NCBI GenBank assembly: GCA_051532055.1 | Contig: JAOPTX010000034.1 | Location: 27,366-91,365 of the forward strand | Length of the DNA stretch: 64,000 nucleotides | Direction: 5' to 3' | Source of the DNA: Fibrobacterales bacterium | GTDB lineage: Bacteria; Fibrobacterota; Fibrobacteria; Fibrobacterales; JAOPTW01 | Part shown: piece after piece, positions 5,500 to 56,019 of the stretch | How positions within the stretch are numbered: the stretch's first letter is position 1 | Layout: every line of letters begins with the position of its first letter | Made by a program: the position numbers and the translations under genes | Notes under the pieces: generated by a model | The model's database searches: none | The model's input: the letters and a program-made list of their open reading frames with translations, nothing else | What the model was told of the DNA's origin: nothing

Positions 5500-5506
5500 A
5501 GAATAG

Positions 5507-9838: not shown

Positions 9839-9901
9839 ATAATAATTCTGAATGACATCTATGATGGGAGTGATTCACTCTCTACATAGATTGACTCTTT
9901 G

Positions 9902-14800: not shown

Positions 14801-14911
14801 ATTTTATCTTCCTTCGAGCATGTGAACCTTATCACACTTGTGATAAACAACACACACAAATGGAATTGAATTTTGTATAATCACTAGTATAGATTTAACA
14901 AGCGCCTCAGT

Positions 14912-19906: not shown

Positions 19907-19926
19907 CATTCAGGTTTTATAACAAT

Positions 19927-19956
19927 AAAGCTGGCTCTTTCTGAGTCAGCTTTTTT
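19927..19956 (+). terminator. Intrinsic terminator
   Basis: 11-bp stem AAAGCTGGCTC / GAGTCAGCTTT (one G-U pair) with loop TTTCT, followed by TTTTTT. Confidence 0.6.
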
Positions 19957-19975
19957 ATTTAACTAATTTTATCAT

Positions 19976-21505: not shown

Positions 21506-21606
21506 ATGAACAATGAGTCATTATATTATTGATCATCTTTAAATTCTATGATATATTTTAATTGACTGACTGGTTAATCAAAAATATTTTTGAAAATGAG
21601 ATGAGA

Positions 21607-22200
21607 ATGGCCCCCCGCACTGAAGATCAAAATGAAGAGATACGACAACACTCACGACGCAAAATTCTTGATGCCGCATTAGAAGTCTTTGCGCAAAAGG
21701 GGTATGTAAATAGTACCATGGCTTCAATCGCAAAACAGGCAGGCGTATCTAAAGGCCTTGCCTACAACTATTTTGAAAATAAAGAAGCCCTTCTTAAAGA
21801 GGTCTTCGAAGAGGGCTTTTCTGCTATTGAAGCAATAATGAATGACTCTATATCCACTGACCCCCTTCAGTCGCTCATAAATGTCATTAATATTTCCTAT
21901 TCCTCATTTAAAGAAAATCTCCCTTTTTGGATCCTCTACTTACAAACAACAATTCAACCTGATTCCCAGGCTATCATTTCGGAAGAAATTCAATCACGTA
22001 TGCACACCGTAATGGGTAGTATTATCCAGCTTTTTACTGCACTTGGTTCACAAGACCCAGAAACAGAAGCTTTCCTCTTTGGAGCTCACTTTGATGGAGT
22101 ACTCTGTGACTATATGATGATGCCTGATGCCTACCCCATTGACAAAGTCCAGAATTTATTCATACAACGATACACCGATCTTTTTAAAGATCGCGCATAA
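21607..22200 (+). CDS. TetR/AcrR-family transcriptional regulator
   Basis: The helix-turn-helix region is RRKILDAALEVFAQKGYVNSTMASIAKQAGVSKGLAYNYFENKEAL. The start is set at ATG 21607 (MAPRTEDQ...). The track ORF starts at TTG 21562, and ATG 21601 is also possible. Confidence 0.8.
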   Translation: MAPRTEDQNEEIRQHSRRKILDAALEVFAQKGYVNSTMASIAKQAGVSKGLAYNYFENKEALLKEVFEEGFSAIEAIMNDSISTDPLQSLINVINISYSSFKENLPFWILYLQTTIQPDSQAIISEEIQSRMHTVMGSIIQLFTALGSQDPETEAFLFGAHFDGVLCDYMMMPDAYPIDKVQNLFIQRYTDLFKDRA

Positions 22201-22211
22201 AAAGGAGCACC

Positions 22212-25115: not shown

Positions 25116-25116
25116 T

Positions 25117-25854
25117 ATGCGCATTCTCTTTATTCTACTAATACTCGCTATCCTCCCCAGTTTTGCTCTCACTGTTGATCAGATTCTTGACAAGGTTGAG
25201 GCAAATGAAGAACCACAAAGTGCCAAAAGTGATATGATACAAATCTCCTATCCATCAAGTGGAACTTCACGGGAATCAAAACTGATAAGTTATAGTGCAG
25301 ACAAAGGCGATAAAGGTTTTATGGAATATACGAGTCCAAAATCAGTCAAAGGAATGAAAATGCTTTCTTTGAATGATGGTGATGAAATTTGGGTATACTT
25401 TCCACGCACAAACCGCAAACGGAAAATTGCTGGCTCTAGTCGTAAAGGCTCGATGAATGGATCTGATTTCTCCTATGAAGACATGAGTCAGTCTGATAAG
25501 AGAAAGGATTATACCTATAAGATTATTGGAGAAGAGAATAAGCTCAATCGAGAGTGCTGGAAAATTGAGGCCATTGCAAAAGATGCAGATGACGAGACAT
25601 ACAGTAAGCTAGTACAATGGGTTGATAAAGAACGATTTATTGGACTCGTTGTCGAATTCTACGATGAAGATGGCGAGCTTTGGAAAGAGCTCACTATGAA
25701 AGGAGTGGCCAAACTTGGCAATTACTGGACTGCCTCCACCATAGAGATGAAAAATATTCAAAAAGGTTCTCGTACTGTGATAAAGACAAGTAAACAAGAA
25801 TTTGATATTTCAATTCCAAAATCAATATTCACACAACGTAATTTAGGTAAATAA
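25117..25854 (+). CDS. Outer-membrane lipoprotein-sorting (LolA-like) periplasmic protein
   Basis: 245 aa with a signal peptide. Family pattern SPKSVKGMKMLSL..DEIWVYFPRTNRKRKIAGSS...MNGSDFSYEDM is present. The start is 1 nt after the MMPL stop. Confidence 0.7.
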   Translation: MRILFILLILAILPSFALTVDQILDKVEANEEPQSAKSDMIQISYPSSGTSRESKLISYSADKGDKGFMEYTSPKSVKGMKMLSLNDGDEIWVYFPRTNRKRKIAGSSRKGSMNGSDFSYEDMSQSDKRKDYTYKIIGEENKLNRECWKIEAIAKDADDETYSKLVQWVDKERFIGLVVEFYDEDGELWKELTMKGVAKLGNYWTASTIEMKNIQKGSRTVIKTSKQEFDISIPKSIFTQRNLGK

Positions 25855-27110
25855 TGAGACCATTACTCCTCTTCACTTCTGTTGTGCTCTCTACATCAAT
25901 AAGCTTTGCACAAAACATCGAGTTTGGTGGATACCTCAATGCAAAAATGCAGGTAATCGATTTTGTCGATACTGCATTTGTTGGGCATACTGAAACTTTT
26001 AGACTCGAAGCCAAACGTGAAATTGAATCGACCGCATCGATCGAAGCACATCTTCTTTTTAGTAGTGCCTTTGAGGCAATCAACCCTTCTGCAAGCTTTA
26101 AAGAGGGTAGTTTTATGGCGAAGGCAAATAACGACCTCATGGCACCTCTTCTTGGAGGTATTGCCCTCCCCTTTGATACCGCTGGAGGAGCCCTTCTCAC
26201 CGATGACCCTCGCATAACCAACCTCTATTATAGTAGTTTACTCCCTAAGGATGCCGTTACCCTTGATAGAGCTGTACTCAAACTCTACTTTACACATGCC
26301 GACTTCTCTATCGGTAAACAAGTAATCTCATGGGGGACAGGCTACGCTTGGAACCCGACTGATTTTTGGAACATGAAAAGCCCTACAGACCCCGAAGCTG
26401 CCAAATTTGGCGTCACCGCACTCCGTACGGAAATCCCTATTGGTGATCTCAGCTCTATAGATCTCGTTGTAGCTCCCGGCCTGGGCTTTGATGAGGGTTC
26501 CGCAGGGGTACGTGTAAAATCAAATATTGCAGGCTTTGACTATTCACTCATGACGGCACGCCAAATGACCCCGGACAGAACCGTTTACGGGCTTCCAGCC
26601 AAATGGATCACAGGATTTGATCTTGCAGGTGATATTTTCAATGGAATCGGTATATGGATAGAAGGCGCCTATAAGAACCGAATATTTAGTGGGCAGAGCA
26701 TGTTTACTACTGACTCTGCATATGTCGATCTTGATGCAGGCTTCAACTACACCTTTGATAATGGTATAATGGCAATGGTTGAATACTATTACAATGGACT
26801 TGGAAAGGAGAGCGCTTCAGAGTATAGCTCTGGTGATTTCATGAATATGTTTAGTGGCGAGATGACAGGCCTTGGGCAATCATATACCCTTACATCATTC
26901 AGTTATGACTTTCTCGATTTTTACAAAGGGAGTATCAATAGTATAATGAACATAAATGATCAATCATTCACCCTACTCCCCATGCTTAGTTACTCATGGA
27001 ATAGTGATGTCACTTTATCTCTTGGAGCGAATATTTTTATTGGTGATCTTGATAGCGAATTTGGTTCATTAAAACCAACGCTCTATGGTGAAGCAAAAGG
27101 TTATTTTTAA
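25854..27110 (+). CDS. Putative outer-membrane beta-barrel, DUF1302-like
   Basis: 418 aa with a TAATG overlap with the LolA-like gene. It has a signal peptide (SISFA-QN), the motif DFSIGKQVISWGTGYAWNPTDFWN and a C-terminal aromatic residue (KGYF). Confidence 0.5.
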   Translation: MRPLLLFTSVVLSTSISFAQNIEFGGYLNAKMQVIDFVDTAFVGHTETFRLEAKREIESTASIEAHLLFSSAFEAINPSASFKEGSFMAKANNDLMAPLLGGIALPFDTAGGALLTDDPRITNLYYSSLLPKDAVTLDRAVLKLYFTHADFSIGKQVISWGTGYAWNPTDFWNMKSPTDPEAAKFGVTALRTEIPIGDLSSIDLVVAPGLGFDEGSAGVRVKSNIAGFDYSLMTARQMTPDRTVYGLPAKWITGFDLAGDIFNGIGIWIEGAYKNRIFSGQSMFTTDSAYVDLDAGFNYTFDNGIMAMVEYYYNGLGKESASEYSSGDFMNMFSGEMTGLGQSYTLTSFSYDFLDFYKGSINSIMNINDQSFTLLPMLSYSWNSDVTLSLGANIFIGDLDSEFGSLKPTLYGEAKGYF

Positions 27111-27132
27111 AACCAACTTTTTTAAATTTTAC

Positions 27133-27169
27133 ATAACAACGGTCCACTCATTGAACGGGCCGTTGTTAT
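27133..27169. terminator. Hairpin between convergent genes
   Basis: ATAACAACGG(T)CC ... GGCCGTTGTTAT forms a stem of about 12 bp with one bulge. The flanking U-runs are weak. Confidence 0.5.
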
Positions 27170-27188
27170 TGAATTAAAATTTTAAAAC

Positions 27189-28706
27189 TTAATCTTCAGC
27201 CTCTTCACAGAAGAGCTTCCCTTCTGCATCAGTAAGACACAGCTTAGTTCTTTTCTGTGCATACCGCACATTATCAATATAGAAAACTGGAGTGACTGGA
27301 GGTGTCCACGATTCAGAGCGATTTTTACCTTCGTCAATATACTCTCCATCAGCTATTTTTACGAAATTCACTACAATCCTCATCTCTTCAATTGATTTCT
27401 TTGTCATTAAATCACCGAAAGGAATTTCAATAGAATACCATTTATCATCTGGCTTCATACCATAATCATTGAGCCACATTACCGCCGCCCCTGTTCCTGA
27501 AGCATTTGGCATTCCCCATTCCATTTTGAGTTGTACATTAAAATTAGATTTAATATCGAACATTAATTTTGCATCATGCCAGTAACTCATGTCTACTAAA
27601 TCGGGCAGAGTAACTTCTTCTCCAAATTGATAGAATAACCCGCCCCAACTTGGTGTAGCTGTAATTTTAAATGCCTCATTTCCTTCTGAAGCTTCCGAAC
27701 CAGTAACTGTTTCAAGTTCTACTTTCATCGGGTGCTTATCATCACTAAATACCCCCCAATCTCCTTCATACCCTGGTGACCCCGCAAACTGAGCAGAGTC
27801 AAGAGGAATACCCTCTTCTTTATATACTACAAACATAGAATCACTAATTATCGTATCAGCCTTATTATAATCATCAGAAAGTAATACAAACTCAATAACA
27901 TCCATATCCGAATCAACTTTTAGTTCACCCACATAATTTTTGTACCCCTTTGCACGAAGCTCAATTTGACGAGTACCTCGTTGAATATTTCTGAGATTGA
28001 GTAACCCCTCATCTGTGGTTTCAATCTTTTGACCTGAGATATCACTTGCATCAGTAAGGTCATAAAATGAGACATCTTCTTCACTGAGTGGCAACGCATT
28101 AGCCCCCAATGTTTTACCAAGAATTTTAAGGGTTATATCTCTCGTAGTAATTTCTGGTGGTTCAGGTGGATCAATACAAATACTGAAACCATCACAATCA
28201 CTATCTTCACAGTCAATATCGCCATCAGCATCATTATCGTTGTCATCATCACACTGACCTTCTGGAAGGCACACTGCAACACTTTCGCAACTTGGGTCTT
28301 CACAGTCTACTTTACCATCTTCATCATTATCTTTATTATCAGCACAGGCTGCATTATTATCTTCTCTGTCAGTAACACATGGAAGAAAGTCACTACATGC
28401 AGAGTCATCACAATCTATGGCACCATCATTATTATTATCAAGTCCATCATCACATATAGACTCTGGCATACAAACAGCAACAACACTACAATTTGGATCA
28501 TCACAATCTGAAACGCCATTATTATCATTATCTCTTCCATCGGAGCAACGGAGGTTAGTATTTTCTCCATCAGGGTCTTCACGTTTTACTAAGGTATGAT
28601 CTGAAGCCATCTCCATATTGAGATAATCGCTATTTTCAGAAATACACCCCTGAATAAAGAACACCATTATGATCGCAACGATTGCGCGAGTGATTTGAAT
28701 AGCCAT
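27189..28706 (-). CDS. Lipoprotein with four Cys-framed DxDxDG (MopE-like, Ca/metal-binding) repeats and a C-terminal CBM-like beta-sandwich region
   Basis: The start is at ATG 28706, which has a GGGGGGA RBS. The lipobox is FFIQGC. Repeats run CSDGRDNDNNGVSDCDDPNC and onward. The C-terminal segment resembles the 57023..57670 lipoprotein. Confidence 0.65.
   Translation of the reverse strand: MAIQITRAIVAIIMVFFIQGCISENSDYLNMEMASDHTLVKREDPDGENTNLRCSDGRDNDNNGVSDCDDPNCSVVAVCMPESICDDGLDNNNDGAIDCDDSACSDFLPCVTDREDNNAACADNKDNDEDGKVDCEDPSCESVAVCLPEGQCDDDNDNDADGDIDCEDSDCDGFSICIDPPEPPEITTRDITLKILGKTLGANALPLSEEDVSFYDLTDASDISGQKIETTDEGLLNLRNIQRGTRQIELRAKGYKNYVGELKVDSDMDVIEFVLLSDDYNKADTIISDSMFVVYKEEGIPLDSAQFAGSPGYEGDWGVFSDDKHPMKVELETVTGSEASEGNEAFKITATPSWGGLFYQFGEEVTLPDLVDMSYWHDAKLMFDIKSNFNVQLKMEWGMPNASGTGAAVMWLNDYGMKPDDKWYSIEIPFGDLMTKKSIEEMRIVVNFVKIADGEYIDEGKNRSESWTPPVTPVFYIDNVRYAQKRTKLCLTDAEGKLFCEEAED
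28176..28547 (-). repeat. Four tandem coding repeats of 31-36 aa, each C-x13-C-x4-C-x5-C with an embedded DxDxDG loop
   Basis: Residues 63-186 of the track ORF. The loops read DNDNNG, DNNNDG, DNDEDG and DNDADG. There are 16 Cys in four identical spacings. Confidence 0.85.
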
Positions 28707-29014
28707 ACTATCCCCCCCAGGATAAAAAATCATTATTGCCTTATCATATGTATCGAATACACTTTAGGCTGCCCGTATAAAATAGCTTTAAAGTAGGGGG
28801 TATGCAAAGTTAATTAGGAATTTACAGTTTACAAACTGTTCACAAAAAAGGCCCCTACTGCAGTTTAAACGGCATATTTTATGGTTTCAGCAACAAAAAG
28901 CATCTATAATTCATTCGCAAAAAACCAAAAGTCACTCCTCATTTTTCCAGAATGTATCCCATTTAATTATCTACATTTGGTACACTTATACAACTAATAA
29001 CACTGACACTCTTT

Positions 29015-30709
29015 ATGTACTACCTTTTTATATTTGCCTGGATAGCCCTATTAACTCAATGTACTACTATTGAGTCATACTTCTCAAGAAGCGAACCCTG
29101 TCTCGAAACTCAAATTACCCCGACCCAATCAAAGGGAGATGGGGATATTGAGTTTAGTCATACACGAGGTTTGTATCATAGTTCATTTGATCTCTCTTTG
29201 AATAGTACTATTGAAGGCACTCTTTACTATACTCTCAATGGCGCCCTTCCGACACCTGAAAATGCAAACGTTTACACGCGCCCGATTCGAATACGAAACT
29301 CATCAAATATCCGTGCCGCAATTTACCATGATTGCGATAGGCTCTCAGACATTGTCACTCACTCTTTTATCTTCCCAAGACACGTGCTTGAACAAGATGA
29401 CGACGATGCCCCTCCCCATGCACAATGGGGCAGAAAGGGCCCCGATTGGAGCATGGATAGCCGAGTGATCGACTCAGATAAACTTCCTTCAAATAAAACT
29501 GACATCCTTCTTGTTAATCCAACAGTTTCCGTCACCATGAGCTGGGACTCCCTCTTTGGTGATAACGGAATCTATATATCAGGTGAAGGCGTAGAGCAAG
29601 AAGCTTCTATAGAATTTTTGTACCCCGATAAGCCATCTCACAGAACCCGGGCATCAATAGAGGTCTTTGGTGGATCAAGCACGAGGCGTTGGAAAGTTGA
29701 TAAGCTCTCCTTTAAGCTCACTTTCCGAAAAAAGACGGGTTACAAAAAATTTAAACATCAACTCTTTGACGATACACCGATTAAAAAATTCAATCATATA
29801 ATTTTAGATGCTGCACACAATAACACCTTTTTCTCAGTCAGTGAAAAACAACGGAGTAAAGCGAGTTATGCAAAAGACCAATTTGCGGCCGATCTTCACA
29901 ATGCAATAGGTGGATACGCTCCGCATGGCTATTACGCCCACCTCTATCTCAATGGCCTTTATTGGGGGCTTTACTATATTCATGAACGACCTGACCACCA
30001 TTTTGCCCAATCCTATTTAGGTAAGAAAAGCAAAAACTATAATGTTCTCAAGCATAAACGAAATCAACTTGTGCATGGTGATTCTGTCAGTTATATAGAA
30101 CTCTGGAGAAGGGCTCAAAAAGACTTGAGTATTGACTCTCACTACGAGAGTGTCAGTGAATTGTTAGATATACCTCAGTATATCAAATATATCCTTGTAC
30201 ATTTATACCTTGGCAACACAGACTGGGGAAACAATAACTGGTATGCAACCCAACATAGAAAAGGGAAATGGATATTTCACACATGGGATGCGGAACACAT
30301 AATGGAAAGCTATCTTTCCAATAGATTTAAAAAACTTAACAATTCTGAAATAGGTTTTCACAAGCACCTCATGGCAAATAAAAGCTATCGAGTACTTTTC
30401 CAAGAAGTGGTAACAAAAGAATTTTATAACGATGGTCTATTTACTGTTGACCGCGCTAAAGCGATGTATGAGACTCGACTCAACGAAGTAGAGAGTTCTA
30501 TAATCGCAGAATCAGCACGATGGGGGGACAATAAAACACCAAAGCAACCTCAAACGAAATGGGACACTTGGGCTAAGAACCGCAGTTATGTCTTAAACCG
30601 TTGGTTCCCTAATAGAACAAAACAGGTCATTAAACAAATTAACACTCACTTTAATGAATGGCCTCAATACCTGTTGGAGCAAGATTCTACAGCAAGTGAT
30701 TCCCTCTAA
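29015..30709 (+). CDS. Secreted CotH-family protein kinase-like protein with an N-terminal chitobiase/Fn3-associated-type domain
   Basis: 564 aa with a signal peptide. TLYYTLNGALPTPENANVYTRPIRI is typical of the CHB_HEX_C-like domain. The CotH core is HLYLNGLYWGLYYIHERPDHHF and NNWYATQHRKGKWIFHTWDAEH. Confidence 0.75.
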   Translation: MYYLFIFAWIALLTQCTTIESYFSRSEPCLETQITPTQSKGDGDIEFSHTRGLYHSSFDLSLNSTIEGTLYYTLNGALPTPENANVYTRPIRIRNSSNIRAAIYHDCDRLSDIVTHSFIFPRHVLEQDDDDAPPHAQWGRKGPDWSMDSRVIDSDKLPSNKTDILLVNPTVSVTMSWDSLFGDNGIYISGEGVEQEASIEFLYPDKPSHRTRASIEVFGGSSTRRWKVDKLSFKLTFRKKTGYKKFKHQLFDDTPIKKFNHIILDAAHNNTFFSVSEKQRSKASYAKDQFAADLHNAIGGYAPHGYYAHLYLNGLYWGLYYIHERPDHHFAQSYLGKKSKNYNVLKHKRNQLVHGDSVSYIELWRRAQKDLSIDSHYESVSELLDIPQYIKYILVHLYLGNTDWGNNNWYATQHRKGKWIFHTWDAEHIMESYLSNRFKKLNNSEIGFHKHLMANKSYRVLFQEVVTKEFYNDGLFTVDRAKAMYETRLNEVESSIIAESARWGDNKTPKQPQTKWDTWAKNRSYVLNRWFPNRTKQVIKQINTHFNEWPQYLLEQDSTASDSL

Positions 30710-30797
30710 GCAAGTCCTTTGAAGCTCTCTCTCTACCCCACCGTCGCAAGTCAATTTACTACATTTTTCAATACATTAATTATCATTCTATAAACCT

Positions 30798-33092
30798 ATG
30801 AAAACTATTATTTCTTTTTTCAAACAAGACCACAATCGATTTATTGCACTCCTTATCATTTTCGGTGCATTTATTAGGCTCATTCAACTGGGAAACCACC
30901 CCGCCGGCCTCAACCAAGAAGAGGCTGCTCTTGGATATGACATTTGGGCTCTAATCCACTATGGAATTGATAGGAATAACATCCCATGGCCTATTCATTT
31001 TATTAGCTGGGGAAGTGGACAAAATGCTCTTTTAGGATACATCGCCCTCCCCTTTATTTGGCTCTTTGACCTGAGCACCTTTTCACTGAGGCTACCAAAT
31101 GCCTTAATAGGAATCGCCTCTTTTATCGCCGCCTATGGTATTGGCTGTAGGCTTCTCGACAAACGATTTGGAACACTCCTTCTTCTCCTAACGATAATCT
31201 CACCCTGGCATCTCATGATAAGTAGGTGGTCTCTTGAAGCCAATATCTATCCCTCAATAGTACTTGTTGCATTCTACTTTTTACTGCGCGCATCAGAGCA
31301 CAAAAAATTCCTTTTCTTTTTTACAGCACTATTAGCTCTCTCTCTGTATGCATACGAAACCTCATATGCTTTTACTCCGCTCTTTTTGTTAGGGTTTGTA
31401 GTGTTTGCATTCCGAACAAAACAATTTTCTTTAAAGCCAGTGACAATCAGTGTTCTTATATTTTTGATCATTGCCACACCAATCATTATTTTTATTCTCA
31501 TCAACGCCTTTAGTCTCCCAGAGATTATTACTCCTTACTTCTCAATTCCTCGCTACACAGGTAACCCTCAACTCCTAAGTATCACTGCTCTTCCGGCTAG
31601 TACTATTCTAAACACTCTACTCAAAAACATTGCAGACCTTATCCTTCTCATTTTTGGAAGCCAAAAAGATATTTTGAGACTGACCACTCTTGATTATGCA
31701 GGTATCATCTTCCCAGTAACAATCCCCTTTACACTTATCGGCATCTACACCGCTTGTAAAAACTGGATTATACAGCGTAATAACATTGGATGGAGCATGC
31801 TTCTCTGTTGGGTCGTTGCCGGTTTTCTTACATCACTTATTACAACCCCCAATATGACCCGCATTAACATTCTCGCGTACCCAATCATTATTTTTACTGC
31901 CTACGGTCTCTACCTTACCTCTACTCAATGGTCCACTTTTTATAGACTCGCACTCTCTATGATTTTGATCTTTTTCTCAATTTTTATCATCTATTATTTT
32001 ACTGGCTACCATACAGAGACCCAAGAAGAATTTCACTATGGACTTGGAAATGCAATAATTGAGGCACAGGAGAAGTGTAACCCCAATGACACTATTTTGG
32101 TCCTTACAAGAGATTCAGCTGCGTATATACAAGCCCTCTTTTTTACTGAAGCCGACCCAAATCAATACCACACTACACGAATATTTGAAAAAATAAAAGT
32201 ACCTTTCCAAGTTGTACGCTCATACAGTAATTACAAATTCAGCACAAACCAATCAGACTTTGTATTACCAAATATTTCAGTGGTAGAATCCTATAGGTTA
32301 GCCGACATCGACACTACGCACTACTATGTGAAACTATTGCATAACTACACCTTACTCCTCAAAAAATCTGAATACCCCCCTTTCAAACTACAGAAATCTG
32401 AAACACCCTATTTCCATATTTATCCTACTTCTATATCCTATCAAAATATGCTCACCATCCACACTAATCAAAATATAGGGCAAATTAAAGTCACTCTCTT
32501 TTCACCCTATATTAAAAAAAGGAGAAGAATCACTCTCTCTCCTTTTCAAACAGGAGTCTATCAGTTACCAATAGACTCTCTCTATCCAGGGTATAATAGA
32601 CTTAATTTTTTCACCTTTGATAGTACTGCGAAGAAACGAATTCGTCACACTAAAGAACTCTTTAATAAAAATCATGGTACAACCTTACCACTATCCTTTT
32701 CCTCACTTAACGGAACTCAAGACTGGCGAATACTCGTAGATAACTTGGCTGTAAATAGGTCGGCTATAACGGTTAATAACAAGATATACTCATTTGGCAT
32801 GGGAACCCATGGTACCAGTCGCTATGCATTTACCCCTCCCAATAATGCCGACTCCCTCTTTGTAGCATTTGGAATGTCAGATGAAAAAACTTGTGGTGAC
32901 GGTGTTTCAGTTTCTATAGTAGGGGGAACAACTACTCTCTATCATCATAGCTCTGTGAGAAGGGGAAAGCTTTACACTACTAAAGTAGCTGTCCCCAAAG
33001 TCGACTCTCTCTTTCTTATATCAAAAAATAAAATAAATTCTCGTTGCGACCATCTCAACTGGATCTACCCCTATTTTTCTATACAGCAATAG
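30798..33092 (+). CDS. GT-C fold (GT39/GT83, ArnT/PMT-like) polytopic glycosyltransferase with C-terminal Ig-like and NPCBM-like domains
   Basis: 764 aa. The N-terminal 430 aa or so hold at least 11 TM helices and the PMT_2-type loop HPAGLNQEEAALGYD. The C-terminal 133 aa are NPCBM-like. Confidence 0.7.
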   Translation: MKTIISFFKQDHNRFIALLIIFGAFIRLIQLGNHPAGLNQEEAALGYDIWALIHYGIDRNNIPWPIHFISWGSGQNALLGYIALPFIWLFDLSTFSLRLPNALIGIASFIAAYGIGCRLLDKRFGTLLLLLTIISPWHLMISRWSLEANIYPSIVLVAFYFLLRASEHKKFLFFFTALLALSLYAYETSYAFTPLFLLGFVVFAFRTKQFSLKPVTISVLIFLIIATPIIIFILINAFSLPEIITPYFSIPRYTGNPQLLSITALPASTILNTLLKNIADLILLIFGSQKDILRLTTLDYAGIIFPVTIPFTLIGIYTACKNWIIQRNNIGWSMLLCWVVAGFLTSLITTPNMTRINILAYPIIIFTAYGLYLTSTQWSTFYRLALSMILIFFSIFIIYYFTGYHTETQEEFHYGLGNAIIEAQEKCNPNDTILVLTRDSAAYIQALFFTEADPNQYHTTRIFEKIKVPFQVVRSYSNYKFSTNQSDFVLPNISVVESYRLADIDTTHYYVKLLHNYTLLLKKSEYPPFKLQKSETPYFHIYPTSISYQNMLTIHTNQNIGQIKVTLFSPYIKKRRRITLSPFQTGVYQLPIDSLYPGYNRLNFFTFDSTAKKRIRHTKELFNKNHGTTLPLSFSSLNGTQDWRILVDNLAVNRSAITVNNKIYSFGMGTHGTSRYAFTPPNNADSLFVAFGMSDEKTCGDGVSVSIVGGTTTLYHHSSVRRGKLYTTKVAVPKVDSLFLISKNKINSRCDHLNWIYPYFSIQQ
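32691..33089 (+). other. NPCBM-like carbohydrate-binding domain (coding segment)
   Basis: IYSFGMGTHGTSRYAF...FVAFGMSDEKTCGDGVSVSIVGG...RCDHLNWIYPYF follows the NPCBM pattern G-x-G-x-H ... G-x-D-D ... DG ... DH-x-x-W. Confidence 0.6.
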
Positions 33093-33113
33093 CACAATGT
33101 AAAAACCTGGGCT

Positions 33114-35417
33114 TTACTGAACAAATCCCCAGGTGACAAAAAAGAGCAGTGAGCAAAAAGCAAAGAGAACAGGCACCCCTAAGAGTACTTTTTTAACACT
33201 GGTCTGTGTCTGTAGCTGAACCATCCTTCCATACAATAATACTGCACCAATAAGTACAGGATAGATATAACGAAAGTCGGTATTGCATGATACTGGTGCT
33301 TTAATACGATATGCAAGAAGTGCACCCAGAGATGACAATACGAGAAGAAGCGCGGGTGCCTCTTTATAAATACGTGCAATGCTCAGTTTTCTAATACCCC
33401 AAAAAGGCATAAGGAGCATAATAAGAAGGAGTACCCCTAATACCCCACCCACTACCATATGAAAAGGACTTCTAAATTGGTACTCTGAAAACAGCGATGA
33501 TTTCAAAAAGAAGTTCCAAAAATACTGCCGCCCCCCCCAGTCAAACCATGTTGAAGTATACGGTTGGGATACAAACGTAGGAATATCAAGATAGATGTAA
33601 TTTACTATGCCATTATCAACTTTCAATTTTTTATTGATTGAATTTCCAACATTCAGCAATAACCAATCGCTCTTCTCTTCTTGTGCAAAATAGATATTAT
33701 CACCAATATTGACACCAGCCGCTATAATTACAACTACCAAACTTAAGAGTGCAGGTTTAATAAACTGTTTGCGATTTTTCCGAATAAGTTGAATGAGAAG
33801 GAGTCCTGCAAAAACACCACCAAGAATCACCCCACTTGATTTTGAAACCATACTCAAAAAGAGACAAACAAGCGCCCAATTGAAATAGATCTTTTTGTGA
33901 GACCTCCACCATCGTACAATCAAATAAAAACCTAATACGGTAAAAAGGTACATTGGCATGTCATTACCAATTCTAATGGAATGAATAATTCCCGAAGGCC
34001 ATAAAAGTATAACACACAGGAGTACTTTCCGAAGAAGTGGTGATTTTATAAGTTCTCTTACAGTAAGATACGATACCAATTGAAAAAGAACAAACATGAG
34101 AAGAGATATAAGTCGCATCGGTACATGCCAATCAACAGTAAAAAGGTGTGTACTGACAAAAGCAACTACTGCCCCAATCAAATAATAAAGAGGTGGCTGA
34201 TGATATTCCCAACCCTTAGCAGGATGTGGAAAAGCAAGGTTATCAATGAGATAAAAAATATAATCCCTGTGTCCCCCCCCTTCATATACATCAAATATAC
34301 GAACTATAAGTGGTGTGTATATCAAATACCACACAAGTACCGCTATCCCAATTCCAAAAAGGATCATCTCGCTTTTAGAGAATGCAAAATAACTAAGTGC
34401 TGCGTATATGAAAAGCCAGATCCCTATACTATATAGAGTAAATGCTGCTATACGTTCTATCACACTGTAATTAGGGTACACCGTAACACCACCTTGGCCA
34501 CCCTTATTTGTAATGACAATTTCAATACTGTTCACTTCAGAAGTAAGGTAAGGACCAAAGTCATATAAAAATCCATTATGCCAATCGTTAAGTTGCGCTT
34601 TATTGAGGTGAGTCAGGTCAACACTCTCTCCATTAACGCGCATCCCTACAAGCTTGTCATCAGGGATAATTTTAAAGAGATCACTACTCAGCAAACTGGG
34701 ACTATAATCAAAGGTTAGAACATACGTTCCTTTAACACTATGCTTTTGTACTGGCCACTGTTCTTCGACTTGTTTTCCATTGTAATTACTAAAAATATTG
34801 GTGATTTGGTTTCCTGATAATAGGCAGGTTATACCCAATAATATCAATCCGGCAGCCATAGTAAACGATTTTTTTCGTCCAATAGATCGCCATACTGGAG
34901 CCAATATTACTGCACCTGCAAAGAAGAAGCAAAGTACCGCCATAAAAACAAGCAATGCTGATGTTCGATATTGATGTGTAGGAGGATTGTACCTAATATC
35001 CAAACCTCCTCTCCCCCCACTATTTACAACAACTATCTCAACAGCATTTGAACCGATTTCTAAATGATCAATGAGTGAAATTCGAGCGCCATTTTTATAG
35101 TCTCGCAACTTCGATTTTTGAATAGTATCAAGCCTTACATCTGCCCCATTCACTTTCATTGAATACAAAAAATCATCGGGTATTACTGTCAGCCAATTAG
35201 AACCCTCTCGATCTCTTACATAATTAAAAGAATAAGCCATTGTATCTGCGAGTGTATCATGAGTATAATGCGGAAGCTCCACAACACTCGTAATGTCACC
35301 GTAAGTTACGGTCTGTGAATTAATTACTGGCTCTCTTAGAACAATACTGCTTATAAATAAAATGAGCGCTGAAATTAGTGCCAACGCCACAACAGCTATG
35401 CGTTGATTATTAGTCAT
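33114..35417 (-). CDS. GT-C fold (PMT_2-like) polytopic glycosyltransferase with two N-terminal copies of an unrecognised extracytoplasmic module
   Basis: 767 aa with an AGGA RBS, 8 nt after the stop of the upstream LtaS-like gene. The EYHQPPLYYLIGAVV region is typical of the PMT_2 family. The order is TM, module A, two TM helices, module B, then a multi-TM core. Confidence 0.65.
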   Translation of the reverse strand: MTNNQRIAVVALALISALILFISSIVLREPVINSQTVTYGDITSVVELPHYTHDTLADTMAYSFNYVRDREGSNWLTVIPDDFLYSMKVNGADVRLDTIQKSKLRDYKNGARISLIDHLEIGSNAVEIVVVNSGGRGGLDIRYNPPTHQYRTSALLVFMAVLCFFFAGAVILAPVWRSIGRKKSFTMAAGLILLGITCLLSGNQITNIFSNYNGKQVEEQWPVQKHSVKGTYVLTFDYSPSLLSSDLFKIIPDDKLVGMRVNGESVDLTHLNKAQLNDWHNGFLYDFGPYLTSEVNSIEIVITNKGGQGGVTVYPNYSVIERIAAFTLYSIGIWLFIYAALSYFAFSKSEMILFGIGIAVLVWYLIYTPLIVRIFDVYEGGGHRDYIFYLIDNLAFPHPAKGWEYHQPPLYYLIGAVVAFVSTHLFTVDWHVPMRLISLLMFVLFQLVSYLTVRELIKSPLLRKVLLCVILLWPSGIIHSIRIGNDMPMYLFTVLGFYLIVRWWRSHKKIYFNWALVCLFLSMVSKSSGVILGGVFAGLLLIQLIRKNRKQFIKPALLSLVVVIIAAGVNIGDNIYFAQEEKSDWLLLNVGNSINKKLKVDNGIVNYIYLDIPTFVSQPYTSTWFDWGGRQYFWNFFLKSSLFSEYQFRSPFHMVVGGVLGVLLLIMLLMPFWGIRKLSIARIYKEAPALLLVLSSLGALLAYRIKAPVSCNTDFRYIYPVLIGAVLLYGRMVQLQTQTSVKKVLLGVPVLFAFCSLLFFVTWGFVQ
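34467..35195 (-). repeat. Intragenic duplication of a module of about 70 aa (copies at 34983..35195 and 34467..34679)
   Basis: WLTVIPDDFLYSMKVNGADVRL..LRDYKNG..VEIVVVNSGGRGGLDIRYNP aligns with LFKIIPDDKLVGMRVNGESVDL..LNDWHNG..IEIVITNKGGQGGVTVYPNY. Confidence 0.8.
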
Positions 35418-35425
35418 AGGTATTC

Positions 35426-38400
35426 CTATTTAATTAAAAGTGGGTTCATCCAATTAGCATGATCACAATAGCTAGAACCCTCGCTATTAGATTTCAGGGC
35501 AAGTTTTTTAACCCCAGAAATATCTGTTTTAATAGTAATTGTTTTGCCTTGTTTAACAATGGACGACTTACTGAGCGACTTACCATCACCCAGCACTTCG
35601 AATGAGATGCCATCAGAACAGCTTACTTCATCATCAATTCCAACAACGGCTTCAAATGTACTATATGAACTCTTTAACTGATATCTCAGTTCACTAGGAG
35701 CATGAGTTCCGAGGCCTTCAGTATATTTTTTATCGCCAACAGTCAGTGGATGGTTATCAACACTCTTATTTATTTTGAGAGATTTATACGTTTGAGTACT
35801 GCTACCTTTCAATGTCGTCAAACGCTTCACTCCATCTCCTTTACGAAAAATGGTATGCGTTTGAGTATCTATCAATATTTTTTGGTAGTATAGCGAAACG
35901 GAAATTTCGTTGTAGCCGACCTTTACTAATTCCCCTACAGAAGTTTTGACTTCATCTTTTTTGACTGTTATCTCTTTTTGCTTGCCGGTAAGAACATTTA
36001 AAATCGAGACACTAAATGAAACATCACTTTTTGACTTAACTTTTAAGGTAATGCTATCACTCAAAATATTGCCTTTGGTGCTGTTAAAAGTACTGCTATA
36101 TATTGATTGTTCTTCTTTTGATACAGCAGTGTAGAGTACAGGATTGAGCCAATCAGTATGATCACATGAGCCCCCATTACCCACATGAGTTCTCAACTCA
36201 AGTTTTTTCACTGAGGTGACCGGTACAGAAACATGTTTTACCGTATTTTGTTTCATTTTTTTTGATTTAAAGAGCCGTTTCCCATCGCCTAAAATTTCAA
36301 ACAGTGCACCATCACCACATTTTGCACCATCATCCATACCATACCATGTATGAAATACTCCATAATCCTTATCAAGAATAATAGTATTGGTACTTGTTGC
36401 ATGGGTTCCCACTCCCATATCATATAAACGGGCATCAATCTTTAAGTCAATCTCGCGTATAGATTTATTGATTTGGTATTTCTTATACCCTGCTTTACCA
36501 GTAATATTTAAATCAGTTATGAGCGTGGTATTCGGTGATTCAACATAAACACTCTTCCACTTTGTGAAAAGATACTCATCACCAAAATAAACCTTAAATT
36601 CCAAATCATTTATCCCTGGTTTAAAAAATTCTGCGGCTATCGATAAGTTTGAACGGGGACTTAAGTGTAAACTATCAATCTGCTCCATTGTGCTATATGG
36701 GTGTACAGTATGATTCATAACTGTAAACCTGTGTTTTGGCCCATAGTTACCTTCGACTCTGTACTCCAGGTCCTCTCCTTGTTCTAACTTAAAAGTATCA
36801 ATCTGTATACGAAAGTTATTTTTACCTAAGTCACTCGTATATATTCTATTCTCTTTTAATAAAACTTCATTATACCTCACTACATCCAGATCTTCCCTCA
36901 TTTGATTTATAAGCTTAATATCTTCAAAGTCGTCAAAGATATTTATTTTCTCTCCAGGGTCGTCTGCAATATTATAAAGTTCATCCTTATTACTCTTTAG
37001 ATTGTGAATCAATTTAAAAGGGTAACGTATTGATGCGAGAAATGTTCCATCAAATGGTTGCACGAGTGGTACAAAGGCTCCGTGCTCTGGACGTTTAAAA
37101 ACCGATGATCCAACAAAATGATTTGTAGTACGGATATCCAAGAGGTCCAATATCGTCGGTGCAATATCTAATTGAGAATATGCAGTCTTATTTAAGACCG
37201 CGGGCGCCACCTTATCTTTCCACAATACAATAAGTGGCATTTTAAACATTTCATTATAAGCAGTTTTAGTATTGTGATAATTATTCTTATGTTGCCCCAT
37301 AGGGAAGCCATTATCACCTGTTACAATAACAATGCTATTATCAAATTCAGGGCGTCTCTCCAACTGTTTAAAGAACTCACGAAGATATTTATCAGTCAGG
37401 TGCATTGAGTTAGTATAATTTTCATGATTACTTTTTGCTTTCGGGTAGATATACTTTTGTTCTTTCGGTATAGAACGAAACATCATATGATTAGTAACAC
37501 TCATGGTCATAACAAATAAAGGTTTATTTTCTTCTTGCTTTAATGAATCCAAAATATCAAAGGTCTTTTTATAGAATAGGTCATCTTGAATCCCCCAACC
37601 AATGGTATACTTTTTCTTTTCCTCTTTTGTAACATACCTTCTGTCCATTCCAGTTGCATGTTCAAAACCATTATTAAGAACGAAAGTTCCTGTATTTTCG
37701 AACCCTAAATTTGAATAAGCTTTTAAGAAAACATTGGTGTACCCATTATCTTTCATTATGTGAGACAAACAACGATAATTATTTTGGTAAAAACTTGTGA
37801 ACACGTTTGTTCTATAACTCGGATACACAGAGCAAAGGGTGGCAAACTGCCCTTTACTCGTTTCAACTGAGGTACTGTAAAATTCAGGTATATAGAGTCC
37901 GTGATTTTTTAGTGAATCAACAAATGGAGTAACCGCTTTACCATTTTCAATCCGGTCAGTATAAAACCCGCTAAATGATTCGAGCATCACAACAAATACA
38001 TGAGGTTTATTTACAGAATCCTTAATAGTAATTTCAGACTCAGCATCAACAACATCCATATAAGGATATATCCCTTTAGATCGCAACTTCTCGAATGAAT
38101 CAATTTTTTTAGGATTCATATAATGGTAAACAGAGGTTATAAATTCTACATGATCAGCCGTAAAGCCCTTTGATGTTATAACTATCAATACATTTACTAT
38201 ACATAACATCGAAAGAATCAGGAGCGGTCTTTTGAAGCGTTTATGATTAGTAAAAATGAAAAATTTTCGTTGTAATAGGACTATGACTCCTATTAAGGCA
38301 ACCAAAATTACCCAACCAACCCACGATATATTTTCGAGTATAAAAAGTATTGACTCTACATAAAAGATATCATGCCCATTCTTTATAATAGTAAGGTATG

Positions 38401-38695
38401 AGAGAGGTTCAAATCGTATAATATGGTATGCCTGTAACCCAATATAGATTATCAACACCAATAGATTTATTATGAGGCGCACACTTCTTTTAAAATAAGC
38501 AAGCAAGCCACCCAACATCACGAAAAAAAGTATTAGAGCAAAAAATGAATGAGTAATATTGATAACAAAAAGGAACGTGTCCCAATTATCTATTGTTGAT
38601 ATTCTTGTACATATGATTGTTTGAAGAACCAAAACGAGTAACAAACTACTCTGATACTTTATCAAACTTTTAATAGTACTCATTATCAATTTCAT
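35426..38695 (-). CDS. LtaS/OpgB-like membrane phospho(glycerol)transferase (5-6 TM + sulfatase fold) fused to two Ig-like + NPCBM-like cassettes
   Basis: About 1089 aa from ATG 38695 (AGGA RBS); the track start is TTG 38713. Sulfatase-fold motifs are VFVVMLESFSGFY, SVETSKGQFATL and IVIVTGDNGFPMGQH. Two NPCBM-like domains lie in the C-terminal part. Confidence 0.7.
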   Translation of the reverse strand: MKLIMSTIKSLIKYQSSLLLVLVLQTIICTRISTIDNWDTFLFVINITHSFFALILFFVMLGGLLAYFKRSVRLIINLLVLIIYIGLQAYHIIRFEPLSYLTIIKNGHDIFYVESILFILENISWVGWVILVALIGVIVLLQRKFFIFTNHKRFKRPLLILSMLCIVNVLIVITSKGFTADHVEFITSVYHYMNPKKIDSFEKLRSKGIYPYMDVVDAESEITIKDSVNKPHVFVVMLESFSGFYTDRIENGKAVTPFVDSLKNHGLYIPEFYSTSVETSKGQFATLCSVYPSYRTNVFTSFYQNNYRCLSHIMKDNGYTNVFLKAYSNLGFENTGTFVLNNGFEHATGMDRRYVTKEEKKKYTIGWGIQDDLFYKKTFDILDSLKQEENKPLFVMTMSVTNHMMFRSIPKEQKYIYPKAKSNHENYTNSMHLTDKYLREFFKQLERRPEFDNSIVIVTGDNGFPMGQHKNNYHNTKTAYNEMFKMPLIVLWKDKVAPAVLNKTAYSQLDIAPTILDLLDIRTTNHFVGSSVFKRPEHGAFVPLVQPFDGTFLASIRYPFKLIHNLKSNKDELYNIADDPGEKINIFDDFEDIKLINQMREDLDVVRYNEVLLKENRIYTSDLGKNNFRIQIDTFKLEQGEDLEYRVEGNYGPKHRFTVMNHTVHPYSTMEQIDSLHLSPRSNLSIAAEFFKPGINDLEFKVYFGDEYLFTKWKSVYVESPNTTLITDLNITGKAGYKKYQINKSIREIDLKIDARLYDMGVGTHATSTNTIILDKDYGVFHTWYGMDDGAKCGDGALFEILGDGKRLFKSKKMKQNTVKHVSVPVTSVKKLELRTHVGNGGSCDHTDWLNPVLYTAVSKEEQSIYSSTFNSTKGNILSDSITLKVKSKSDVSFSVSILNVLTGKQKEITVKKDEVKTSVGELVKVGYNEISVSLYYQKILIDTQTHTIFRKGDGVKRLTTLKGSSTQTYKSLKINKSVDNHPLTVGDKKYTEGLGTHAPSELRYQLKSSYSTFEAVVGIDDEVSCSDGISFEVLGDGKSLSKSSIVKQGKTITIKTDISGVKKLALKSNSEGSSYCDHANWMNPLLIK
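35429..35824 (-). other. NPCBM-like domain, copy 2 of the LtaS-like protein
   Basis: KYTEGLGTHAPSELRYQL..FEAVVGIDDEVSCSDGISFEVLGDGKSL...KKLALKSNSEGSSYCDHANWMNPLL. Confidence 0.65.
36122..36520 (-). other. NPCBM-like domain, copy 1 of the LtaS-like protein
   Basis: LYDMGVGTHATSTNTIIL..FHTWYGMDDGAKCGDGALFEILGDGKRL...KKLELRTHVGNGGSCDHTDWLNPVL. Confidence 0.65.
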
Positions 38696-38726
38696 ATAAT
38701 TCCTAGCACTCAATATAAGTGCAAAT

Positions 38727-38762
38727 ATAAAAAAAGCTTACCTATACAGGATAGGTAAGCTT
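38727..38762 (-). terminator. Intrinsic terminator after the prs-like gene
   Basis: Perfect 12-bp stem AAGCTTACCTAT / ATAGGTAAGCTT with loop ACAGG. On the minus strand it is followed by TTTTTT. Confidence 0.75.
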
Positions 38763-38796: not shown

Positions 38797-39957
38797 TTAT
38801 ACGCTTGGGGGGGGCCAGCGTGGATTTTTACTCGACATGTCGATAGAGTAAAAATCTTTATCAAATCGATTCTCTTCCATTTCAAGCATTTGCAATATAT
38901 GGCGACAAATCCATTTGCCTATTTTAAGTACAACAAGTTTTTTTCTGAGACGACCCTGACTATCACGATTCATAACTGTGTGTATCGTATTAGTGGTCAT
39001 AATCTCATCAATTGCTTTATTATTAAGGTTTTCACGTGCTTCTTGTGATGGATAAAAGTGAGTTACTCCAAATGCAACTTTATTTGGATTCCCCTTTTTA
39101 ATAGCCGCACAGGATTCGACAATAGTATTACCAGTCCGAACCATGTCATCCATTACAATTACATCTTTTCCAGCAAGATCTGCTATTGTAACTTCTGATT
39201 CAGGGTGAACTTCTATTGATACTTTTCGTTCTCCTGAACGTTCTTTATTAAGCAATAATATTTTAGTATCAGGAAGTCCCAAATATTCGTGTACCATTTT
39301 AACAAAAGGAACAGCACCTTTATCTGGCGCACATAATATAAGGTTTTCACCATTCATTCCAGTATGTAATAAATCTGATTTCTTAAGATAATCAGCATAC
39401 AGTTCAGCAGGAATTAAGTTATGAAAATTACCTTCAAACACTTCATTAAAAAGAGTTTGCACCTTAACCGAATGATTGTGTACGGTAATTACAGAATCAA
39501 CACCTGACTGTTTAAGCAGCTGAGCATAGAGGAGTGATGTAAATGCTTGTCCATCGAATTTTTTCAAATCCTTCATGGTACGATCTTTTTCAAGGTCACC
39601 GTATACGTATGGACCACGGTCTTGAGCCGAGAAAAAGAGATCTGGCTCAACCAAAATAACATGCTTAGCACCATTCTCTTTAGCCGATCGAGCCAAAATA
39701 AAGTTGCGCATAGCAAGACTATTACGGCCGTGAGTATTTGAAGACGTTGAGCAAATGATTACTGTACGATCGACAAGTTGAGTCCCAATGTTTTCTAAAT
39801 CAGATTCATCACTGATAAAACGGGGACAAAACTCGGAGTTCGCATAGCATCTCAGTGCCACTAGGTCAGAAATGTCAATTGGTATACCGAGTAACTGAGC
39901 AACATCAATCGCAAATGGATTGTCCGATGTGTTACCTGTTACAACTAATTTATCCAT
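38797..39957 (-). CDS. Ribose-phosphate pyrophosphokinase-family protein (long, divergent form)
   Basis: 386 aa with a GAGGA RBS. VEPDLFFSAQDRGP corresponds to the Prs ViPYfgYaRQDr motif, and VIVMDDMVRTGNT is the PRPP-binding loop. It is about 70 aa longer than a typical Prs. Confidence 0.65.
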   Translation of the reverse strand: MDKLVVTGNTSDNPFAIDVAQLLGIPIDISDLVALRCYANSEFCPRFISDESDLENIGTQLVDRTVIICSTSSNTHGRNSLAMRNFILARSAKENGAKHVILVEPDLFFSAQDRGPYVYGDLEKDRTMKDLKKFDGQAFTSLLYAQLLKQSGVDSVITVHNHSVKVQTLFNEVFEGNFHNLIPAELYADYLKKSDLLHTGMNGENLILCAPDKGAVPFVKMVHEYLGLPDTKILLLNKERSGERKVSIEVHPESEVTIADLAGKDVIVMDDMVRTGNTIVESCAAIKKGNPNKVAFGVTHFYPSQEARENLNNKAIDEIMTTNTIHTVMNRDSQGRLRKKLVVLKIGKWICRHILQMLEMEENRFDKDFYSIDMSSKNPRWPPPSV

Positions 39958-56012: not shown

Positions 56013-56019
56013 GAACATC

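Follow-up and report, generated by a model that had tools for sequence, protein, structure and literature searches.

The use of carbohydrate-binding modules (CBMs) to hold an acceptor polymer near the active site is known for the GT-C glycosyltransferases EmbC, AftD and ORF12. The C-terminal domain of EmbC is a CBM (PMC3044687), AftD carries CBMs (10.1101/2019.12.22.885152), and in ORF12, the founder of family GT136, residues 503-652 bind the unmodified O-polysaccharide and are dispensable when the enzyme is over-expressed (PMC11127046). Decoration by a phosphotransferase is represented by GacH/SccH, a glycerol-phosphate transferase with the LtaS fold that acts with GT-C and GtrB-type enzymes on one polysaccharide (10.1101/337519). 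CBM51 modules, the family to which NPCBM domains are assigned, bind galactose, blood-group A/B and GlcNAc-type ligands (PMC11368712; PDB entry titles). Here we analyze a 64-kb stretch of DNA from a Fibrobacterales bacterium (contig JAOPTX010000034.1; GC content ~40%), hereafter the window, to which all positions refer unless a locus of another genome is named. Three adjacent genes of the window, designated C, D and E, encode two GT-C proteins and a polytopic phosphotransferase of the LtaS/OpgB/GacH type, all three with predicted sugar-binding modules on the outer side of the membrane.

We estimate a probability of about 0.6 that C, D and E act outside the cytoplasm to tailor a glycan belonging to the envelope of the cell itself. 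Such lectin-guided decoration had been proposed for this DNA in an earlier reading of the sequence (the original prediction) and is, in our opinion, the most sensible interpretation of the data, although the principle is not new, as EmbC, AftD, ORF12 and GacH/SccH illustrate. The original prediction had joined C, D and E with two further genes, A and B, in a five-gene envelope cluster. All five open reading frames (ORFs) were recovered with the coordinates and strands first proposed for them (Table 1); the mechanical ORF starts lie slightly upstream for A (28733, ATG) and E (38713, TTG), and the starts proposed earlier (28706 and 38695) are plausible ATGs. The classes predicted for the products were also borne out, namely a Cys-repeat lipoprotein for A, a CotH-family protein for B, a GT-C protein ending in an NPCBM domain for C, a GT-C protein with a duplicated module for D and, for E, an LtaS/OpgB-like sulfatase-fold transferase with 5-6 transmembrane (TM) segments and two NPCBM domains.

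The E protein consists of an N-terminal TM bundle (~residues 1-200), a sulfatase-fold catalytic domain and two successive units that each combine an immunoglobulin (Ig)-like domain with an NPCBM domain. Hydropathy analysis revealed five to six hydrophobic segments between residues 11 and 175, and together with the extracytoplasmic sulfatase-fold domain that follows (residues 237-527) they reproduce the architecture of LtaS, OpgB and GacH. Pfam searches matched Sulfatase (1.7e-45) and two copies of NPCBM (1e-60; PF08305, 204 bits in two stretches against a cutoff of 23.9), the latter being assigned to CBM51 by sequence only, through the PDB entries 8pvs, 2vmg and 2vmh. The best solved relatives in a PDB sequence search were LtaP (4UOP, 1.7e-22) and LtaS (2W8D, 1.4e-20). 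In the alignment with these two proteins, the VETSKGQF segment of E lies over their GKTSDAEF segment, which makes Thr279 the counterpart of their nucleophilic Thr and aligns two metal ligands with Glu239 and Asp461; Asn462 is the remaining predicted ligand. The catalytic set of LtaS comprises E255, T300, D475 and H476 (10.1101/337519), and E239, T279 and D461 of E agree with the E/T/D/H set that this study gives for LtaS and GacH, the fourth position being occupied by Asn462. Among 36 members of the E family, E239, D461 and H403 were invariant (36/36), position 279 was Thr in 29 and Ser in seven, and position 462 was Asn in 27 and His in nine. The public protein record for E has 920 amino acids (aa), starts at residue 170 and lacks most of the TM bundle; the longer reading frame used here is supported by full-length homologues of 1079-1110 aa.

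Besides its GT-C membrane domain, the C protein has an alpha/beta domain in the periplasm, an Ig-like domain and, at its C terminus, an NPCBM domain. Pfam detected PMT_2 with a marginal score (27.3 bits, cutoff 26.1) and NPCBM clearly above its cutoff (3e-10, 40.7 bits, cutoff 23.9). When an AlphaFold2 (AF2) model built from 48 sequences (pLDDT 87.8) was submitted to Foldseek, the GT-C matches were AglB (7.6e-10), ArnT (1.1e-8), ALG12, STT3, PglB and AftD, and the CBM51 matches were 7js4, 8pvs, 2ygl, 2vng, 2vmg and 2vmi (target TM score 0.55-0.69), with 7js4, 8pvs, 2vmg and 2vmi scoring 0.66-0.69. The CBM51 modules that the C terminus matched belong to ZmpB, GH110, GH98 and GH95.

As to D, its PMT_2 score (26.0 bits) fell 0.1 bit under the Pfam cutoff of 26.1, so the family HMM (hidden Markov model) did not call the protein and its membership in the superfamily follows from the fold, not from the Pfam family. 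The AF2 model of D, derived from 36 homologues (pLDDT 86.7, pTM 0.86), matched EmbB (2e-5), EmbA, EmbC, STT3, ArnT, Pmt4 and AftA in Foldseek, and its homologues are named 'RgtA/B/C/D-like' or 'ArnT family'. Residues D376, G382 and H383, in the first outer loop after helix 348-367, are invariant in 36 sequences. The duplication suggested earlier was confirmed by BLASTP, with residues ~59-148 and 239-328 sharing 34% identity (E=3e-17). DSSP found strands in the model only at residues 32-143 and 204-316, and the beta-sandwich matches of D (rhamnosidase 3w5n and GH2 sugar-binding domains) must therefore map to these two modules, for which Pfam returned no match when they were searched on their own and whose assignment is by predicted fold only. 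Relatives of ~600 aa from Gilvimarinus, Marinagarivorans, Cellvibrio and Nitratiruptor contain a single copy of the module. Counting helices back from the D376 loop, both modules of D are predicted to lie outside the cytoplasm.

The fusion of NPCBM to enzymes of these classes is rare. In a search of 1.84 billion representative proteins, E had 473 relatives at E<=1e-30; the majority were ~620 aa long with a TM region and a catalytic domain, and only ~10 clusters aligned through an NPCBM region. A 90%-identity database contained ~26 LtaS-like proteins with NPCBM, which came from Fibrobacterales-like contigs, Gilvimarinus and Marinagarivorans. Similarly, 228 homologues of C were collected, mostly named GT39/ArnT family, and NPCBM was present on ~10 of them and CBM_6 on one. 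In the 64-kb window, tblastn detected no NPCBM-like sequence outside C and E. The NPCBM domains of these two proteins are supported as extracytoplasmic by the GT-C and LtaS topologies together with the lack of any TM segment after the NPCBM. The notion behind the original prediction that NPCBM is a module of secreted glycoside hydrolases was too narrow, since the domain has also been reported in conflict systems and in VanZ/Lipocone fusions (PMC8195603, PMC12419801).

To place C, D and E in context, they were compared with loci of other genomes, referred to as L003-L010. The sole close genome match of the window was the Fibrobacterales metagenome-assembled genome tPB_Fibr2 (L003), in which the flanking genes for an S41 protease, GlgP and a phosphoribosyl pyrophosphate (PRPP) synthase are 94-98% identical to those of the window, and E, D, C and B are 73, 78, 70 and 67% identical, respectively. 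Catalytic parts are the best conserved between the two genomes and the Ig, NPCBM and TM parts the least; in E, identity is highest in the catalytic domain (86%) and lowest in the second Ig-like linker (46%). The stop codon of E is separated from the start of D by 8 nt in the window, and the same 8 nt are found in L003, so that E and D are very probably co-transcribed, as had been proposed. An 88-nt gap separates B from C, which follows it on the same strand, and the two probably form another transcript; C and D converge with a 21-nt gap.

The order B-C-D-E was kept only in this single close relative, where three additional genes are inserted between D and C (L003 13945-17829). Their products are a further GT-C protein with NPCBM (GT-C3, 632 aa), a 520-aa protein that resembles FAD amine oxidases and a GtrA of 145 aa. 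This trio of GT-C3 with NPCBM, oxidoreductase and GtrA is also found after the E orthologue of L007. We take this order of GtrA, flavoenzyme and GT-C genes to recall Rv3789-DprE1-AftA; the flavoenzyme family differs. Three more distant contigs (L006, L007 and L008) share a SecA-Tmk-S41-GlgP-PRPP block, and in all of them an E orthologue (32-40% identity) is anchored immediately behind the PRPP-synthase gene. This orthologue stands alone in L006, and in L008 it is accompanied by a 577-aa protein (13275-15008) with at least eight hydrophobic segments and a C-terminal NPCBM (7e-32). The membrane part of this protein is dissimilar to those of C and the L003 GT-C3, and it thus represents a fourth kind of polytopic NPCBM protein, which brings the polytopic enzymes of this lineage that carry the domain to at least four: C, E, the GT-C3 of L003 and L007, and the L008 protein. 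In two unrelated genomes (L004 and L005), a C-like GT-C protein with NPCBM is encoded beside a D homologue, two GT2 proteins, DUF2304 and GtrA, the neighbours being parts of a Gtr-type periplasmic glycosylation system. Genes for MatE/MOP transporters, possible flippases for lipid-linked sugars, lie directly upstream and on the same strand of the C-like gene of L005 (8494-9888) and of the D-like gene of L010, from Gilvimarinus (8552-9907).

Past the E region, L007 continues into dUTPase-ThyA-DHFR-ABC-PEMT genes, which in the window occupy 9.9-17.7 kb. Between the dUTPase gene (17206-17661) and E, the window contains ~17.5 kb (17891-35417) that encode two unknown secreted proteins, a TetR-MMPL-LolA-like-outer membrane protein series and A-D. 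This continuity in L007 indicates that the 17.9-35.4 kb segment of the window is extra material at a variable, insertion-prone spot. Taken together, these comparisons define the locus as a fast-evolving, indel-prone place flanked by conserved housekeeping genes, which is what the diversification of a surface glycan would lead one to expect. The claim that A-E form one cluster was not supported by them: A has no relatives in a metagenome scan, CotH genes are unlinked in nine loci and homologues of D and E occur alone elsewhere. A-E are not one conserved unit, and synteny upholds only the recurrent pieces, that is, B-C-D-E in one close relative, the anchored position of E and the pairing of C with D.

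According to the mechanism that we propose, C and D would operate on the outer surface of the inner membrane, where polyprenyl-phosphate carriers would supply the sugar that is transferred onto an already exported polymer. The GtrA, GT2, DUF2304 and MatE genes near homologues of C and D in L003, L004, L005, L007 and L010 are a suitable context for such a donor. In E, Thr279 would act as the nucleophile on the head group of a membrane phospholipid, most likely phosphatidylglycerol, with phosphoethanolamine as the alternative group. A hydroxyl of the same glycan, or of a related one, would then receive the phospho-group; by analogy with its relatives, our best guess is that E moves glycerol-phosphate from phosphatidylglycerol. 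The beta-sandwich CBMs predicted on the outer side, one NPCBM/CBM51 in C, two in E and two galactose-binding-like modules in D, probably keep the acceptor polymer close to the active site, as is known for EmbC, AftD and the GT136 enzyme ORF12.

Several observations weigh against this interpretation. E scores far under every NCBIfam equivalog cutoff (82.9 bits vs 970 for its best match, LtaS; 60 bits vs 572 for phosphoglycerol transferase I, OpgB), which makes it a relative and not an orthologue of these enzymes, and its fourth metal ligand is an Asn, in a sulfatase-like 'GDNG' context, instead of the His of LtaS; the head group moved by E is accordingly a guess. The first outer loop of C reads Glu41-Glu42, whereas the L003 orthologue (NQDEAS) and 97% of 121 homologues have Asp41 of the 'DE' motif. 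For this reason C might be impaired or altered; the acidic character of the position is retained, and Glu41 could reflect altered function, decay of the gene or a mistake in the assembly. Homologues of D stand alone in L009 and Gilvimarinus, as do homologues of E in Gilvimarinus and L006, and in the genome that contains L007 and L009 the D and E homologues are unlinked, so that the genomic data do not require the enzymes to share a polymer. Gilvimarinus agarilyticus is a cultured carrier of both D-like and E-like genes. Finally, no GtrA (PF04138), GT2 (PF00535) or other polyprenyl-phosphate-sugar synthase was detected among the ORFs of at least 150 aa of the window, in which tblastn with the L003 GtrA also found nothing, and the donor supply is thus unaccounted for within these 64 kb. 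The real unit would be C, D and E with GtrA-type partners that are encoded elsewhere or have been lost.

Some of these observations would also fit a locus without any single pathway, a recombination-prone 'junkyard' between housekeeping blocks in which independent envelope genes (a lipoprotein, a CotH gene, two unrelated GT-Cs and an LtaS-like gene) serve different substrates. The extra 17.9-35.4 kb of the window relative to L007 between dUTPase and E, the three-gene indel in L003, the unlinked relatives of D, E and CotH, and an A gene without relatives in a metagenome scan are all of the kind that such a junkyard would produce. It is harder to reconcile with the 8-nt E-D junction conserved in L003, with a C-D pairing that recurs in two distant genomes, with three copies of the rare NPCBM domain packed into 6 kb of a window that has no others, and with the co-occurrence of D-like and E-like families in the same narrow set of taxa (Fibrobacterales, Gilvimarinus and Marinagarivorans). 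We regard this explanation as unlikely, and retain the tailoring of an envelope glycan by C, D and E as the preferred one.

The sulfatase fold of E raised the question of whether this protein might be a membrane-anchored hydrolase, a sulfatase or phosphodiesterase, acting on foraged polysaccharides, with its CBM51 domains binding dietary galactans in the manner of those of glycoside hydrolases. Its carriers do degrade polysaccharides (Fibrobacterales and the agar-degrading Gilvimarinus and Marinagarivorans), the distal, C-terminal half of its catalytic domain resembles S1 sulfatases and SGSH_C and includes the 'GDNG' motif, and a sulfotransferase gene lies near a Gilvimarinus E homologue. The E sequence, however, lacks the C/S-x-P-x-R formylglycine motif, and a Thr or Ser occupies the nucleophile position in 36/36 family members, as in LtaS, GacH and OpgB; on these grounds the sulfatase reading was rejected. 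Moreover, a bundle of 5-6 TM segments is the hallmark of the lipid-donor transferases of this fold, LtaP and LtaS are the best solved relatives, and the neighbours of E in related genomes encode GT-C, GtrA and oxidoreductase proteins, not glycoside hydrolases or transporters. A role as a hydrolase of either kind consequently appears improbable. In L007, a gene with an FGE-sulfatase domain (8869-9747; 8e-33) adjoins the E orthologue, lying between it and the PRPP-synthase gene, a position that would favour a sulfatase although E itself has no formylglycine motif; this domain has been proposed elsewhere to be a lectin-like binding domain (PMC8195603).

With respect to C and D, the annotation of C homologues as GT39, the fact that PMT and PMT_2 were the sole Pfam matches in the membrane domains, and the presence of Pmt4 and oligosaccharyltransferases among the best Foldseek matches would be consistent with one or both being PMT/GT39-like enzymes that O-glycosylate secreted or lipid-anchored proteins, perhaps including A. 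CotH would phosphorylate these proteins and the NPCBM domains would recognise them once glycosylated, and B, a member of a protein kinase family, is indeed probably co-transcribed with C and adjacent to it in L003. ArnT, Emb and AftD, however, score equally well or better in the structural comparison, the C/D pair occurs in distant genomes in Gtr-like glycan-modification contexts without CotH, no acceptor sequon or MIR-type feature was identified, and neither A nor CotH is linked to the pair in a conserved manner; we give this explanation little credence. An anti-phage defence function, suggested by the occurrence of NPCBM in conflict systems, was rejected, as none of the five proteins had a PADLOC match and the NPCBM domains are all extracytoplasmic.

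Beyond the tailoring of an envelope glycan by C, D and E, we tentatively consider a more specific possibility, that in this Fibrobacterota lineage a single lectin family, NPCBM/CBM51, has become attached to four or more unrelated polytopic enzymes of the envelope, namely two or three kinds of GT-C, another polytopic protein and an LtaS-type phosphotransferase, which would all dock on the same self-made and probably galactose-containing surface polymer. E would then be the first CBM-guided LtaS-type transferase, and the locus might be a fast-diversifying 'glycan tailoring cassette' that sets the surface serotype and thereby recognition by phages or predators. Should the proposed role of E be borne out, the concept of CBMs that bind the acceptor would reach beyond GT-C enzymes to the LtaS/OpgB/GacH class of phospholipid-head-group transferases, and CBM51 would gain a role in the building of glycans, not in their degradation. 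Fibrobacterales are major fibre degraders of gut ecosystems whose envelope glycans are poorly known, and isolated NPCBM domains could serve as probes for their surface polymer. The practical benefit would be modest, since other systems have already established how such enzymes work in general.

The CotH gene B and the lipoprotein gene A are regarded as neighbours of the C/D/E system. A matched the NCBIfam model NF033662 (acidic double-disulfide repeat, 6e-22) in three stretches, and its N terminus, MAIQITRAIVAIIMVFFIQGC, resembles a lipoprotein signal when read by eye. No Pfam match was obtained for A, its C-terminal half gave nothing usable at E<=1, and no relatives appeared in the metagenome scan. 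Weak PDB matches to a teneurin Cys-rich domain (5e-4) and, over residues 316-434, to the CBM11 of Clostridium thermocellum endoglucanase H (1v0a, 4e-3) raise the possibility that A is a surface lipoprotein that binds glucans and has no connection with the transferases; it is probably a bystander whose membership in the system is doubtful. B matched CotH (PF08757, 1.5e-24; 87.5 bits vs a cutoff of 23.8) and has a hydrophobic N terminus and an N-terminal Fn3_assoc/CHB_HEX_C-like domain (Fn3_assoc, CHB_HEX_C_1); at E<=0.01 it had no solved relative by sequence. Its adjacency to C is retained in L003, and none of A, C, D or E was found near CotH genes in nine more distant metagenome loci, so B may be co-expressed with C without a conserved link to the system. 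CotH genes beside exopolysaccharide loci have been noted earlier, with no known role (PMC7112168).

The strong terminators said to flank the five genes were only half substantiated: on the right there is an intrinsic terminator-like hairpin with a 12-bp stem and a T-run, and the left-hand structure is an inverted repeat with a weak T-tail that the terminator scan did not call (Table 1). The intergenic regions of the cluster gave no Rfam match for a regulatory RNA at E<=0.1. A signal of horizontal transfer was likewise rejected, since the GC content of the cluster (0.35-0.40) is not distinct from that of the adjacent housekeeping genes. Directly upstream of E lies a long (386 aa), divergent PRPP-synthase-like gene (38797-39957), which takes the same place in L003, L006, L007 and L008. 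PRPP is the precursor of the polyprenyl-phosphoribose donors of GT136 systems; no UbiA-like synthase was seen.

Elsewhere in the window, ~20 kb from the cluster, a separate polysaccharide-synthesis locus (534-7200) encodes a DegT aminotransferase, a GT56-like protein, a Wzx-type flippase, a GT4, a SIS-domain protein and a GT32-like protein, and could be the maker of the acceptor glycan. The genes at 21562-27110, for a TetR regulator, an MMPL/HpnN/BstA-like RND (resistance-nodulation-division) transporter of 967 aa, a LolA-like periplasmic protein and a 418-aa signal-peptide protein without Pfam match, look like an operon for the export of a hopanoid- or sterol-type lipid, and a second MMPL gene is located at 7280-9838. 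Two very large ORFs without Pfam match at E<=0.001 (1559 and 1055 aa) lie within 47680-56892, the second being followed by a GH16 gene (56020-56892).

Table 1. Coordinates of the genes, domains and flanking structures in the window
Feature	Position	Strand	Evidence
Gene A, putative lipoprotein	27189..28706	-	NF033662 6e-22
Gene B, CotH family	29015..30709	+	Pfam CotH 1.5e-24
Gene C, GT39/ArnT-like GT-C, 764 aa, C-terminal NPCBM	30798..33092	+	Pfam, AF2, Foldseek
Gene D, GT-C, 767 aa, two N-terminal beta-sandwich modules	33114..35417	-	AF2, Foldseek
Gene E, LtaS/OpgB/GacH-like polytopic phosphotransferase, 1089 aa	35426..38695	-	Pfam, PDB matches, hydropathy
E, catalytic domain, residues 237-527	37115..37987	-	Pfam, alignment to LtaP/LtaS
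E, codon of the predicted nucleophile Thr279	37859-37861	-	Alignment to LtaP/LtaS
E, NPCBM copy 1, ~residues 725-862	36110..36523	-	Pfam; tblastn of L003 NPCBM (36134-36541)
E, NPCBM copy 2, ~residues 965-1087	35435..35803	-	Pfam best stretch; CBM51 of 8pvs, 2vmg/2vmh; tblastn (35432-35845)
C, NPCBM/CBM51 domain, residues 638-760	32709..33077	+	Pfam 3e-10; PDB 8pvs 5e-5; Foldseek
C, codon 41, GAA (Glu), at the near-invariant Asp of the first-outer-loop 'DE' motif	30918..30920	+	Alignment of 121 homologues
D, beta-sandwich module 1, ~residues 30-145, predicted extracytoplasmic	34983..35330	-	DSSP, Foldseek
D, beta-sandwich module 2, ~residues 204-316, duplicate of module 1	34470..34808	-	BLASTP, DSSP
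Intrinsic terminator-like hairpin, 12-bp stem and T-run, between the PRPP-synthase gene and E	38734..38762	-	Terminator scan
13-bp inverted repeat with an 11-nt loop, on which the 25854-27110 gene and A converge	27133..27169		Sequence read

When the locus is set beside the described systems, a close parallel to C and D is found in the three-component, Gtr-type systems of periplasmic glycan modification and the GT136 enzyme ORF12 of Citrobacter youngae (PMC11127046), in which a GT-C enzyme acts on an exported glycan and carries, in the case of ORF12, a C-terminal beta-sandwich CBM; relatives of the window genes also adjoin GtrA, GT2 and MatE genes. In contrast to the Gtr-type systems, the synthase and flippase genes are missing from the window, and two or three GT-C proteins occur together with a phosphotransferase instead of a single GT-C. 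The CBM of C is an NPCBM/CBM51, unlike that of ORF12, the modules of D are N-terminal, and C and D are not GT136 members by sequence. EmbA/B/C and AftD likewise combine the GT-C fold with lectin-like acceptor-binding CBMs, the Emb proteins being the top fold matches of D and AftD appearing among those of C, but identity to C and D is only 8-14%, the CBMs belong to other families and no genes of the decaprenyl-phosphoarabinose pathway are present here.

As regards E, the streptococcal GacH/SccH (gacHIJKL/scc; 10.1101/337519; PMC11754754) shares the LtaS fold, the predicted Thr nucleophile and a neighbourhood of GT-C side-chain genes, and decorates a cell-wall polysaccharide with a head group derived from a phospholipid, much as is proposed for E. 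GacH, however, has 11 TM segments and no CBM, whereas E has 5-6 and two NPCBM domains; GacH was not among the PDB sequence matches of E at E<=1e-3, and the host of E is Gram-negative (Fibrobacterota). LtaS/LtaP and OpgB, which have five TM segments and an extracytoplasmic sulfatase-fold domain, include the best sequence matches of E and have the Glu/Thr/Asp set in common with it, but E differs from LtaS and OpgB in its ~470-residue C-terminal extension of Ig-like and NPCBM domains, and the metal-binding His of both GacH and LtaS is replaced by Asn. The original prediction had recognised no characterised pathway of this composition, and we found no paper on NPCBM in GT-C or LtaS-type enzymes, or on any CBM in an LtaS-type enzyme or phosphoglycerol transferase; the underlying design, on the other hand, is already documented. 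The NPCBM domains themselves are of the same Pfam family and fold as the CBM51 modules of GH95, GH98, GH110 and the M60 peptidase ZmpB, but here they are borne by membrane-embedded transferases and not by secreted hydrolases. Taken together, the comparison identifies C, D and E as an uncharacterised, rare variant of a known design and not as a new kind of system.

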